A DNA stretch of 64,000 nt from an uncultured Actinomycetota bacterium (GCA_963843515.1 CAWJKH010000004.1:35867-99866); one strand, 5' to 3'; shown: positions 4,165-50,245, counted from the first letter of the stretch. The notes: generated by a model from the letters alone, not told the origin. A program made the numbers and translations.

Positions 4165-4330
4165 CCGCTCCGTTTGCTGCTGCTGAGCTTGCCCCCGACT
4201 TGCCACCGAACTCGCCCCAAAGACGCGAAAACCCGGCTTTTGCGACCGGGCTCCGATCTGCCGTCCTCGGCTTTCGAAAGCGGAGAGGGGGGATTAGAAC
4301 CCCCGGTCCCGCTTGCGCGGCACAAGCGAG
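4165..4330 (+). repeat. Interspersed tRNA-like repeat family copy
   Basis: Carries TTGCCCCCGACTTGCCACCGAACTCGCC, the ACCCGG/CCGGG hairpin, and GCGGAGAGGGGGGATTAGAACCCCCGG. Confidence 0.7.
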
Positions 4331-4359
4331 ACGGAGGCCCGGCAGCCTTTCGGCCGCCT

Positions 4360-5043
4360 CTACGGCAGGAACTGCTCGTCGATGCTGACTACCAGCGGGC
4401 CGTCCCGCTCGATCCACCAGGGCATCCCGTGCAGGTGGGTGGCGTCGGCCGGGGCCGCAGCGCTCCAGAAGCTCTTGAACTGGGCCCAACTGACAGGGTG
4501 GTCCATTATCCCTTTCCAGGTGGACGTGGTGATGGGGACGGAGTTGGACACCTCGAAGACTCTCTTCTGCGGGTTATCGTTCTGGATCCAGTAGTCGTTC
4601 GGCACGTGGTCGCCCGGCTCTATCTCGCCGGCCGCAACGGCAGCCGCGTCCGCCTCCGCCCCGGTCAGCATCTCGGCATAGTCGATGCTGATGTAGCGCT
4701 TGCCGTCCTTGACGTATACCTTGTCGATGTAGCCCATGGCCTTGATGTGGCCGTTGGAGAGCCGGGTCTCGGCGCTGGAGAGCTTCTCAGTGGTCGTGGT
4801 GGTCCCCTCGAGGCCAGTCGTGGTGGTCTCTTCGAGCATCGACGTGGTGGTTGTGCTCTCGAATATCGCCCCGGTGGTGGTGGTCACCTCGACTGCGCCC
4901 GCGGTGGTCGTGGCCACCTCCGGGGCCGCGGCCGTAGTGTTGGTCGTGCTGTTTCCGCTGCCGCTGCAGCCGGCCACGACCAGCACCGCCGCAAGTAGTG
5001 CGGGGATAAGGACGGCGAGTGCGACGCGTCTCTTAGACTTCAC
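4360..5043 (-). CDS. Secreted lipoprotein with Thr-rich linker
   Basis: Signal peptide with lipobox LVVAGC and a TTTT-rich linker. GTG start with AGGAGGTGG upstream. Confidence 0.6.
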   Translation of the reverse strand: MKSKRRVALAVLIPALLAAVLVVAGCSGSGNSTTNTTAAAPEVATTTAGAVEVTTTTGAIFESTTTTSMLEETTTTGLEGTTTTTEKLSSAETRLSNGHIKAMGYIDKVYVKDGKRYISIDYAEMLTGAEADAAAVAAGEIEPGDHVPNDYWIQNDNPQKRVFEVSNSVPITTSTWKGIMDHPVSWAQFKSFWSAAAPADATHLHGMPWWIERDGPLVVSIDEQFLP

Positions 5044-5395
5044 CGGACCCCCACCTCCTCATTGGAGAGACTAGCGACATGAGAAGCCAGGCGCGGATGT
5101 GAACTAGTGCGAGACCCCTCTCCGGCCGCCCATCTGAGCTTTGAATGGAGGGAAATACTGCCCTCCCTATTAATCGACTATAGGCCGTTTGTGTCTTGCG
5201 TCAACAGGGGAAGTTGCGGCCTCGACCGGCAAGGGCTTCGCGGCAGCCGAACGGGGAACACTGGCTGCTGCTACCGCCAACTCCAAGCGTTGCGCGGCTG
5301 TGGTCATCGCCCCCCGCTCACCCTTGGCGTGATTGGCGCGTCGACGGGCGTGGCGTGAGGGGGGAACTCTCTTCACGTTGATATACTGCTGTCCA

Positions 5396-47822: not shown

Positions 47823-48269
47823 AACCGGCGGACCCCAGAAGGGCCTTTACTAGCCTGGTTCTCCGCTCCCATCGAGAAGGTCTGGGAGGCCTTGACCACA
47901 CCAGACGTGATCAAGCAGTGGTTCTTCGGTGTCGACACCGAGACTGACTGGAAAGTCGGGAGCCGTCTAATTCATCGGGGCCGGTAGCAGGGCAGGCCTT
48001 ACGAGGCCAGAGGCGAGATTGTCCGGTTCGATCCTCCCGAACTCCTAGTGCATACCCACTGGAGCGAACTATCGGGCAAGTCCGATAGCCCGGAGCACTA
48101 TCAAGAGGTGTCCTGGGTGCTATCTAGGGGCGGCGCGGCGACGGAACTCACGATTAGGGAGCGCAATCTTCCGTCGGAGGAGGTGAGAGCCGTTTCGGAA
48201 GAAACCTGGCGGATCGTTCTCAAGAACATCAAGGACCTGGTTGAGAGCGAGGTAGGCAGGGCCGGCTGA
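47823..48269 (+). pseudogene. SRPBCC / AHSA1-domain protein, disrupted (no start codon, in-frame TAG)
   Basis: AWFSAPIEKVWEALTTPDVIKQWFF...GSRLIHRGR*QGRPYEARGEIVRFDPPELLVHTHW. There is an in-frame TAG at about 47986 and no initiator after the upstream stop. Confidence 0.5.
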
Positions 48270-48349
48270 TCCCCAGCACTTGCCGCCGACGATTGGGGCC
48301 TGACTGTCACGCGGTGTTCGGGTCCGCCTCAGTCCGTCTGCTGCTGACG
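48270..48349 (+). repeat. 5' part of a repeat copy split by IS481 insertion
   Basis: Ends ...CAGTCCGTCTGCTGCTGACG immediately before the IS. Confidence 0.6.
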
Positions 48350-50084
48350 TGTCAAGTCCCAGTACCCGCTTTACACTCTGGCTCCGGTTCCTTCTTTACA
48401 GTCAATTCGGCCCCGATCGGGAATGTCGATTTCTCTAGGAGGCTTTGAGCTTCCTCGGTCTGCCTTTGCGAACGCCGAAGGCGCCGTGCTCCTTCTCCTT
48501 GTCGTGCCGAGCGGGATGGGTGCGGATGAGCTTGCCCCCGGCCCAGATCTGGACCGTGTCTCCCGCCAGGCGCACCTCCACCTGCTTGCCGGCGAAAGCC
48601 GTGCCCACCCGATAGGCGGTGCCGGCGAAGCTCAGGTCACCCCGGGAGTCCACTTGGCGAAGGACGGCTGGGTGAGCCAGCTGCGACCTGACTCCCGTCC
48701 CGTGCTGCCGCCTTCTGAGCGCCGGCTCTTCCGCCTCCTCCCGGTGCTTGCGGGCAAGCGTGGCCACGAGCACGTCGTGGTGGAAGATGTTGACCAGGCC
48801 GTCAGGGCCGAACTCGATCTCCACCGTTTTCCCACCTAGGAACCGGCCCACGGTATAGTCAGCCCCCGCCAGGCGCAGGCGCCCGTTCTCGCTCACCTTG
48901 CGGATGGCTCGAGGACCATGAGGCGGGAGGTGGTCCGCCTGTTCCCACTCGGGAGCTTCCTCGGGAAGGAGCGGCCAGAGCCCCTCGGAAGCCGCAGCGG
49001 CGAAGCGATCATGGGGTGAGGCCATACCGATGCCCTGGTGGGGCCGCTCGGTGTTATAGAAGGCCACCCAGGCGTCCAGTTCGGTCTGGGCTTCCTCGAG
49101 CGAGGCGAAGACCCTCCCCGCTAAGAACTCCTTCCGGACGGTCTTGTGGAAGCGCTCCACCTTGCCGGTCGTCGTCGGGGAGCGGGGAGCGGTGAGCAGA
49201 TGCCGGATGCCGTTCTCCCGACAGATGCGGTCGAAGAGCACCTCACCGCGGCTGGGACCGAAGCGGCTCGTGAACACCTTGCCGTTGTCGGTGAGGATCT
49301 GGTCGGGGACGCCATAGCGGCGAAGAGCGAGAGCGAGAGCTTCGCATACCGGCCGGGCCGTGGCCCGGGGCACACAAAGCGCCGAGACGCAGAAGCGGGA
49401 GTGATCATCCAATCCGGTGATGATCTTGAGCTCGGAGCCGTCTTCAAGCTTCACCCCGCCCATGATGTCCATCTGCCAGAGCTCCATGGACCTGCTCCTT
49501 TCCCAGCGCTTATAGTGCTCCCGGCGCCTTCGCCTTTTCGTGGGGTCGATGAGTCCGTGGCGGACGAGACAGCGATAGATGGAGGAACGCCCCGGCAGAG
49601 GTTCCACCCCAGCTCGGGCCAGCTCATGACGGATAGTGCGCGGGCCCCATAAGGGGTGAGTCCGGCGGAGCCCAAGCACCTGGGCTATCACTTCGGGTGG
49701 CATCTGGTGGGGGCAGGATGCTGGCCGGCAGGGGTGGTCCAGAAGACCGGCGATGCCTGATGCTGCATAGCGCCGGAGCCAGGTGTGCACCGTCTGACGG
49801 GTCACCCCATAGCGACGAGCCACGTCGGTGATCGGGGTGCCGCCCATGACCTCGAGGACCGCTTTGTGCCGTTGTTCCACCAGTCCCAGCTTGACGAGCA
49901 TGGTGTCGACCTCCCTCGATACGAGCCATTTCTGACCGTATCGGAGGGATTGGGACCGGAGGCAAAGAGAAGGCAAGTGTCAAATAGGTACCGGAGCCAG
50001 TGTCGCCCAGGTACCGGAGCCGCGTCCTGAAACTGTCAAGCACCTACCGGAGCCAATGTGTCAAGTATCTACCGGGACAACACA
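48350..50084 (-). mobile_element. IS481-family insertion sequence
   Basis: Both termini begin TGT (TGTCAAGTCCC / TGTGTTGTCCC). It is flanked by a 14-bp direct repeat GTCTGCTGCTGACG. The transposase-proximal end carries three copies of an ~25-bp motif (TGTCAA[AG]...TACCGGAGCC). Confidence 0.7.
48435..49901 (-). CDS. IS481 family transposase (DDE, rve core)
   Basis: N-terminal HTH, ITGLDDHSRF...LTDNG...YNTERPHQG. Start at MLVKLG. Confidence 0.8.
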   Translation of the reverse strand: MLVKLGLVEQRHKAVLEVMGGTPITDVARRYGVTRQTVHTWLRRYAASGIAGLLDHPCRPASCPHQMPPEVIAQVLGLRRTHPLWGPRTIRHELARAGVEPLPGRSSIYRCLVRHGLIDPTKRRRRREHYKRWERSRSMELWQMDIMGGVKLEDGSELKIITGLDDHSRFCVSALCVPRATARPVCEALALALRRYGVPDQILTDNGKVFTSRFGPSRGEVLFDRICRENGIRHLLTAPRSPTTTGKVERFHKTVRKEFLAGRVFASLEEAQTELDAWVAFYNTERPHQGIGMASPHDRFAAAASEGLWPLLPEEAPEWEQADHLPPHGPRAIRKVSENGRLRLAGADYTVGRFLGGKTVEIEFGPDGLVNIFHHDVLVATLARKHREEAEEPALRRRQHGTGVRSQLAHPAVLRQVDSRGDLSFAGTAYRVGTAFAGKQVEVRLAGDTVQIWAGGKLIRTHPARHDKEKEHGAFGVRKGRPRKLKAS

Positions 50085-50245
50085 GTCTGCTGCTGACGCG
50101 TTTGCCCCCGAAACGCCCCCGAACTCGCCCAAAAGACACGAAGACCCGGTCTTACCGACCGGGTTCCGGCACACAATTCTTGGCTTTCCTAAGCGGAGAG
50201 GGGGGGATTCGAACCCCCGGTACCGTTTGCACGGCACAACGGTTT
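50085..50245 (+). repeat. 3' part of the IS481-split repeat copy
   Basis: GTCTGCTGCTGACGCGTTTGCCCCCGAAACGCCCCCGAACTCGCC...GCGGAGAGGGGGGGATTCGAACCCCCGGTACCGTTTGCACGGCACAACGG. Confidence 0.7.

Follow-up and report, generated by a model that had tools for sequence, protein, structure and literature searches.

Intergenic repeats downstream of a tRNA-Ser(CGA) gene in an uncultured actinomycetote: probable attachment-site relics of serial tyrosine-integrase insertion

A 64,000-nucleotide stretch of one contig from an uncultured Actinomycetota bacterium (GCA_963843515.1, CAWJKH010000004.1:35867-99866; hereafter the window) contains a dense family of intergenic repeats, described in an initial annotation as modular structured elements with a tRNA-like 3' module. 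With a probability which we put at roughly 85%, the repeats are instead relics of the attachment (att) sites left by serial tyrosine-integrase insertion into the gene for tRNA-Ser(CGA), accumulated by tandem accretion with loss of the integrases, and are not RNA genes. The array comprises 17 units in 50 kb and carries accessory enzymes and transporters between the repeats.

Repeat units and the tRNA-Ser(CGA) gene

The T-arm motif GGGGGATTCGAACCCCC, allowing up to two mismatches, matched the window 12 times, exclusively on the plus strand, compared to 0.05 matches in shuffled sequence. A profile built from 10 copies gave 19 hits, corresponding to 17 units between 682 and 50252 in a single orientation, at or near all the coordinates first annotated, and no unit was found by the same profile between 50284 and 64000. 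A dense family of about 17 loci is thus confirmed. Self-BLAST and repeat finding recovered copies of 140-230 nt at the annotated positions. These approximately 200-nt repeats are direct, 150-230 nt long and 75-90% identical to each other, and the units have neither terminal inverted repeats nor an inverted repeat spanning the whole unit. Copies differ from one another by single-base indels, which is consistent with non-coding sequence, in agreement with the original proposal. The array probably extends past the left edge of the window, beyond unit 1.

The unit at 50085 runs directly into a live tRNA-Ser(CGA) gene on the minus strand (50193-50283; identified by ARAGORN, and by Rfam RF00005 with 55.8 bits against a gathering score of 29), and the earlier statement that the element is not a tRNA gene does not hold for this last copy. 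Read on the tRNA strand, the units align to tRNA-Ser from ACCGTTGTGCC, in the 3' anticodon stem, to its 3' end, and then to its downstream flank. In the window, the 17 units are all found 3' of the tRNA and share its orientation, with none on the opposite side. A unit has four parts. The first is the 3' half of the anticodon stem (ACCGTTGTGCC), the variable arm, the T-arm and the acceptor of tRNA-Ser. This is followed by a spacer, TTAGGAAAGCCAAGAA or a second variant TT-ATTTnCAGGG, then by a 7-bp GC hairpin with the T-rich tail TTTTCGCGTCTTT, and finally by the conserved block GGGCGAGTTCGGnGGCAAnTCGGnGGCAAACTCG containing two tandem 11-nt direct repeats (TTCGGnGGCAA x2), after which come GACGGAC-type repeats. 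The flank accounts for 110-190 nt of sequence downstream of tRNA-Ser in each unit. The annotated 3' module is therefore the antisense of the tRNA 3' part; it is tRNA-like as proposed, but belongs to the adjacent tRNA-Ser(CGA) on the opposite strand and does not stand free. The annotated core, likewise, corresponds to the downstream flank of this tRNA. The variable-arm variants found in internal fragments match tRNA-Ser alleles which head arrays in other genomes.

The modules do occur separately, as had been noted. Over all the arrays, the tRNA part and flank were found together in 92 hits, the tRNA part alone in 27 and the flank alone in 43. The optional 5' hairpin module also exists, but only in three copies in the window and one copy in a relative.

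Related arrays, integrases and junctions

A core-motif scan of 185,579 species genomes gave 54 blocks, all from uncultured Actinomycetota metagenome-assembled genomes (MAGs) labelled Thermoleophilia, Gaiellales or Actinomycetes, about 25 MAGs in number. A tRNA-Ser(CGA) gene with repeats running off its 3' end was present in about 22 of the fetched blocks. Over 40 contig segments, containing 180 units, orientation was never mixed and every tract started at the tRNA. The median unit spacing in these segments was 1310 nt (interquartile range 767-2556), with 36% of spacings below 1 kb, and one contig has 31 units in 72 kb. No match to the core motif was found in viral contigs, and there is therefore no evidence for a phage carrier. 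One MAG, CAVYVU (loci L019, L037 and L050), carries three or more tRNA-Ser(CGA) genes, each at the head of an array; a 517-nt cassette is common to two of its arrays (95% identity) and is also found in another species (98.5%).

The same flank layout, combined with other 11-nt tandem repeats, is found in arrays that have tRNA-Leu(TAA) or tRNA-Ser(TGA), which are also class II tRNAs, at their head. Examples are loci L029 (4260-4560) and L002 (6840-7160), with the tandem repeats TTGGTGACAnC x2 and AAATCGTTGCTG x2. These arrays suggest sister integrase lineages on other class II tRNAs, and variation of the 11-nt repeats from array to array is to be expected if they bind protein, but not if they belong to an RNA fold.

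A motif screen of 294 open reading frames (ORFs) identified a tyrosine recombinase in loci L017 and L020, about 2 kb downstream of the tRNA and pointing toward it. Intact integrases are present in L017, L020, L055, L056 and L057. The family is approximately 385 amino acids in length and contains PF14659 and PF00589, with PF14657 in some members. In L017, L020, L056 and L057 the integrase and a conserved gene for a 79-amino-acid (79-aa) protein lie in the tRNA-proximal unit and are transcribed toward the tRNA. In L056 the integrase element, of about 6 kb, is the first unit after tRNA-Ser, bounded by the tRNA and a repeat (14290-14549) and by a second repeat (8149-8272), and the window shows synteny with the 5' flank of this tRNA. 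The head element of L057 is larger and includes a Prim-Pol gene, and in L055 the integrase, the 79-aa gene and a TIR gene adjoin a repeat. Integrase pseudogene fragments, in the expected orientation, were found inside six other arrays.

The 79-aa gene is always 3' of the integrase and belongs to a narrow, highly conserved family of 229 members (P0121-P0240). Its AlphaFold model has a mean predicted local distance difference test score (pLDDT) of 77 and a beta-alpha-beta-alpha-beta-beta fold. A guess would be that the protein is an accessory or excision factor. The window retains a homologue on the plus strand between units 6 and 7 (Table 1), the translation of which has a stop upstream and lacks the N-terminus; we interpret this copy as a relic of a lost integrase module.

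The arm CAACGGACCTACGCCnGAGCC is common to the junctions in L056, L055 and L014, and beyond it the sequence is identical to the tRNA from base 1 of the anticodon loop (CTCGAAA) onward. The same start is found in other internal junctions, which form a minority of the internal junctions. This sharp identity boundary corresponds to a classical anticodon-loop crossover. The junction of unit 16 in the window (45935-45960) contains a perfect 8-bp inverted repeat, AGGCACAA / TTGTGCCT, around 10 nt (TCCGCGACCG, tRNA strand). It could be a candidate core-type site pair for a second integrase class, with a crossover just 3' of the anticodon loop.

Origin of the arrays and alternative explanations

The arrays very probably arose as follows. 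A family of integrative elements with a phage-type tyrosine integrase inserts into the anticodon loop of tRNA-Ser(CGA). The incoming element brings its own tRNA 3' part, from the 3' anticodon stem through the variable arm and T-arm to the acceptor, and because of this the tRNA is kept intact after insertion. It also brings a terminator-like hairpin and an attP arm of about 100 nt with the tandem 11-nt direct repeats and the GACGGAC repeats; these repeats are likely to be bound by the integrase or by an accessory protein. The hairpin and T-rich tail resemble a tRNA terminator and may act as one. Each new insertion at the live tRNA would shift the older insertions, with the displaced tRNA 3' fragment and arm, farther downstream, and repeated insertion would produce a co-oriented array. 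Insertion would presumably always take place at the array head. Later loss of the integrase modules would leave integrase-less gene units between att repeats, similar to cis-mobilisable elements (CIMEs), and the units may still be mobile today.

Several observations weigh against this scheme. No integrase or integrase fragment was found in the window by tblastn with 30 integrase homologues or by Pfam searches. Among approximately 165 units fetched without selection for integrase, only about eight have an integrase trace and more than 90% have none, so that simple accretion followed by decay needs either a very clean loss of integrases or many units which never had one. The 79-aa protein has no Pfam domain and is not a recognisable excisionase, and Foldseek gave weak matches only (Smr, SepF and Alba-like, with a best E-value of 0.05). 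The internal junctions in the window start 7 nt later than expected for the anticodon-loop crossover, at X|ACCGTTG, without CTCGAAA. Neither an excised circle nor an empty site was observed in the contig sequences. Finally, the hairpins miss a simple terminator consensus scan and their T-tract is interrupted.

In an alternative reading, the anticodon loop of tRNA-Ser is the fixed site of an active integron-like capture platform, in which an integrase acting in trans moves integrase-less cassettes. A cassette would be one or two genes with one att site of about 200 nt, excised, shuffled and re-inserted by the integrase of a resident or visiting element. We consider this unlikely, though several observations favour it. 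With the spacings given above, many units are too short for a 1.15-kb integrase, and more than 90% of units, as noted, lack an integrase trace. There are 28 cargo pairs common to different arrays, with 70-98% identity, and their neighbours differ wherever this could be assessed, while 27 of the 28 keep their orientation relative to the repeats. The window units 27134-27771 and 27814-29071 are adjacent in L014 in swapped order, exactly what a two-unit circle re-inserted via its other att site would give, and these swapped cassettes are 84-90% identical compared to about 74% for the backbone. One MAG, as described, has the same cassette in two arrays. However, many units are truncated to the tRNA part or the flank, and since the CTCGAAA overlap is kept in a minority of internal junctions, most of them look unable to recombine. 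The genes are only 62% co-directional (63 to 39), unlike integron cassettes, and the array in the window has no adjacent integrase. Differing neighbours could also result from deletions between direct repeats or from independent acquisitions, and flanking repeats are not clearly co-inherited with the cargo: the linkage of repeat to cargo, which bears on site-specific versus homologous exchange, was 0.79 and 0.81, close to the background of 0.755. The stronger proposal, of an integron analogue in a clade of soil Actinomycetota in which a phage-type tyrosine integrase and its lineage-specific 79-aa partner stockpile and reshuffle dozens of cassettes in trans at a fixed tRNA-Ser capture site, with every cassette tagged by an att site of about 200 nt made up of the tRNA 3' end and an arm, is a little more doubtful still. 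Less likely again is that the repeats simply serve as portable homology, so that cassettes are gained, lost and reordered by RecA-dependent crossover with the integrase an occasional participant. The length, direct orientation and mutual identity of the repeats would allow it, as would the conserved orientation of the cargo, and cargo is often closer between genomes than are the flanking repeats (for example 90% compared to 72% and 80%), which fits crossovers within repeats. The same numbers would follow from faster divergence of non-coding repeats than of coding cargo, and 75-80% identity over 200 nt is a poor substrate for RecA. Moreover, the origin of the repeats, the sharp anticodon-loop junction and the integrase association are left unexplained.

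Two other explanations are far less probable than these. Selection on secondary structure, the basis on which the repeats were first annotated as a family of non-coding elements, structured as RNA or DNA and bearing a tRNA-like 3' module, is now very improbable as their origin. The hairpin is kept, being paired in 92.8% of cells compared to 27-46% in slid controls, but by few double changes and mostly by conservation and one-sided changes, and not chiefly by compensatory substitution as claimed. The pair at alignment columns 103/112 does cycle through UG, CG and UA, and some flank positions are at least 90% conserved. Any double change was seen in six of the 17 pairs tested, a result reached by 53 of 500 shuffles. 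The RNAalifold consensus of 58 copies was -4.65 kcal/mol with a covariation term of -0.48. In the pair counts, the strongest case of compensation, with CG in 30 copies and UA in 12, is in the tRNA variable arm, where it reflects tRNA function and alleles which also head other genomes' arrays. The core inverted repeat CGAGTT...AACTCG was rejected as a hairpin, with pairing in 80% of cells and zero compensation. Fold z-scores for nine flank segments ranged from -2.0 to +1.5 (mean about -0.75), and the predicted folds differ among copies with one short hairpin alone in common. Within the flank, conservation is highest in the tandem direct repeat, and this repeat varies with the tRNA that heads the array; the tRNA-like module is antisense on the strand as annotated. 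A search of the whole window at Rfam gathering thresholds passed the true tRNA alone, which upholds the statement that no known Rfam family other than tRNA is represented. An E-value search of one internal unit gave sub-threshold matches only (RF04351, 42 bits against 68; the tmRNA T-arm, 13.7 against 47). The RF04351 match, to the plastid psbI-rps4 3'UTR RNA, is at 45897-45950 (+), over the reverse complement of a tRNA-Ser 3' fragment; the model may be matching antisense tRNA-Ser sequence, and the match is not evidence of function in the window. With structure evidence this weak, and with units that are co-oriented, confined to the tRNA 3' side and tied to integrases in relatives, a free-standing structured RNA family is not sustained. 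Least probable of all is a tRNA-derived repeat of the repetitive extragenic palindromic (REP), miniature inverted-repeat transposable element (MITE) or short interspersed element (SINE) kind spread by transposition, possibly via the DDE transposase encoded beside the tRNA. The repeats are indeed tRNA-derived, short and intergenic, and an insertion sequence (IS) with that transposase is found in the head unit and in the repeat flanks of two other genomes. However, the units have no terminal inverted repeats, and in all 40 contig segments they form a single co-oriented tract from the tRNA. Since the IS carries separate inverted repeats and is flanked by a 14-bp target duplication, it interrupts a unit rather than bounding one, and its transposase was rejected as the driver of the repeats.

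Cargo, insertion sequences and comparison with known systems

The coordinates of the units and associated features are given in Table 1. The 14-bp target duplication of the IS, GTCTGCTGCTGACG, is at 48336-48349 and 50085-50098. The IS has terminal inverted repeats TGTCAAGTCCC / TGTGTTGTCCC with TGT...ACA ends, four subterminal spaced repeats of 25-33 nt at 49975-50084, and a single gene (48435-49976) for a 513-aa DDE transposase with the Pfam domains rve, rve_3, HTH_32 and Mu-transpos_C_2. An IS of the same type is also present in L054 (5711-7414), L037 and L010. In three genomes, the window and two others, the IS lies within the flank of a repeat. This hints at some preference for such targets, in a sample biased by the choice of loci for having repeats.

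Table 1. Positions in the window of the tRNA-Ser(CGA) gene, the repeat units and associated features
Feature	Position	Strand	Identification
tRNA-Ser(CGA), intact; array head and putative integration target (attB/attL)	50193..50283	-	ARAGORN, Rfam RF00005
Unit 17 proximal: live tRNA 3' part, spacer, hairpin and T-rich tail, tandem 11-nt repeats; ends at the IS (50084)	50085..50252	-	
IS interrupting unit 17, 1735 bp, outside the repeat family	48350..50084	-	
Unit 17 distal flank, parted from 50085 by the IS	48271..48352	-	
Unit 16, full length, 91% identity to head copy; distal module 45686-45746	45726..45953	-	
Unit 15, flank only, without tRNA part; distal module 44749-44809	44814..44946	-	
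Unit 14, full length; second sublineage, different spacer, hairpin GAAGCTCGACC/GGTCGAGCTTC	40845..41082	-	
Unit 13, diverged, flank only	39653..39786	-	
Unit 12, tRNA 3' fragment only	39134..39195	-	
Unit 11, full length	33480..33709	-	
Unit 10, distal flank fragment	29733..29819	-	
Unit 9, acceptor end of tRNA fragment and flank	29072..29206	-	
Unit 8, tRNA T-arm and acceptor fragment only; left junction TCACGAGATAGGTACC with NmrA gene stop common to locus L014	27772..27813	-	
Unit 7, full length; distal module 26863-26923	26918..27133	-	
79-aa protein homologue, N-terminally truncated	25997..26215	+	tblastn 68% identity, residues 10-76
Unit 6, full length	22892..23124	-	
Unit 5, full length, variable arm decayed	20316..20534	-	
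Unit 4, full length, variable arm decayed	13974..14187	-	
Unit 3, full length	11300..11522	-	
Unit 2, full length	4105..4338	-	
Unit 1, tRNA fragment and rearranged flank fragment	682..811	-	

The genes between the units are unrelated accessory genes on both strands. They encode PAP2 phosphatases, a GT4 glycosyltransferase, UPF0182, an S15 peptidase, a nitroreductase, four SnoaL-like proteins, MsrB, MFS transporters, a multihaem cytochrome, NmrA, WG-repeat, DUF4386, TMEM175 and ABM proteins, muconolactone-isomerase-like proteins, a radical-SAM enzyme and IS110, the last being an IS110-family (DEDD) transposase inside one unit (32048-33268). A near-consensus sigma-70-type promoter (TTGACA-16-TATAGT) is present at 45637-45664 on the minus strand, upstream of ORF 44952-45476, and at least one unit therefore has its own promoter. 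A direct duplication of about 420 nt (14259-14676 and 18526-18945, 72-92% identical in pieces) comprises the 3' parts of two minus-strand genes, DUF4332/HhH and DUF7144, and looks like a duplicated C-terminal domain. Tandem 21-nt repeats at 13305-13551, in a chagasin-family inhibitor gene (12733-13896), code for a Thr/Glu-rich linker. On the 5' side of the tRNA are PRC-barrel, HTH, VWA, ARPP-1, CoA-transferase, cation-efflux and ABC genes. Synteny with relatives extends over this side at 70-82% identity, which marks it as stable backbone, while the 3' side varies. The genes upstream of the tRNA were considered as the possible source of a recombinase and none was found among them.

Accretion of this kind is already known. 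In the CIMEs and ICESt1-related islands of streptococci, the site of integration is the 3' end of a target gene, the integrase is lost by decay while the att sites are kept, and new elements enter the att site with the gene end to form tandem composites (PMC5704250). The window resembles these in tRNA 3'-end integration, in integrase-less units which keep att repeats and in tandem build-up. It differs in having 17 units, and a relative at least 31, per array rather than two or three, in units mostly of 0.5-2.5 kb with no conjugation or mobilisation genes seen, and in its hosts, uncultured Thermoleophilia-like Actinomycetota in which the arrays are known from sequence alone. The tycheposons and the tRNA-seeded islands of Prochlorococcus are tyrosine-recombinase elements at tRNA genes in which later insertions push older ones inward, and the islands hold partial tRNAs, fragmented integrases and adaptive accessory cargo (10.1101/2020.12.28.424599). 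Here the likeness is a functional resemblance only, the host phylum being different. The repeat in our arrays is about 200 nt (tRNA part and conserved attP arm), not a tRNA segment of about 40 nt alone, the units are much denser, and no replication module was seen in most of them, the Prim-Pol gene of L057 in one relative being the case noted above.

Mycobacteriophage L5 and pSAM2-type actinomycete elements are classical examples of tRNA-targeting integrases with crossover in the anticodon loop. As in these, the integrase described here combines PF00589 with an N-terminal SAM-like domain, the arm motifs are repeated, and the block of attP/attB identity runs from the anticodon loop to the tRNA 3' end. 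However, it is at most 36% identical to the phage integrases of the phage collection searched, and its partner is the 79-aa protein. Integrons also form long co-oriented arrays of small gene units split by recombination sites with a fixed head site, and cassettes in our arrays are likewise common to several genomes and reshuffled. Unlike integrons, there is no recombinase on either side of the tRNA in the window and none of the IntI type; the associated integrase is phage-type (PF14659 and PF00589). The sites are att sites of the double-strand kind, derived from a tRNA, in contrast to the folded palindromes of attC, with the 7-bp hairpin alone in common among the units, and the weak co-directionality of the genes, the promoter within a unit and the many truncated sites are further differences. 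To our knowledge, integrons proper are essentially absent from Actinomycetota.

In this case the units are unusually dense and occur in an unstudied lineage. If the repeats are att-site relics, they are a map of the insertion history at one tRNA gene, and a mechanistic reading replaces that of a structured-RNA family. The region is a 50-kb hypervariable store of accessory genes in an uncultured soil actinomycetote, extending over more than 72 kb in a relative, and the repeat profile provides a ready marker with which metagenomes can be searched for arrays of this kind and for their cargo. With small integrase-less units packed at such an unusual density, the question arises whether cassettes move in trans. 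An active integron-like cassette system is possible, and if movement in trans were true, it would constitute a gene-capture device in a phylum without integrons.

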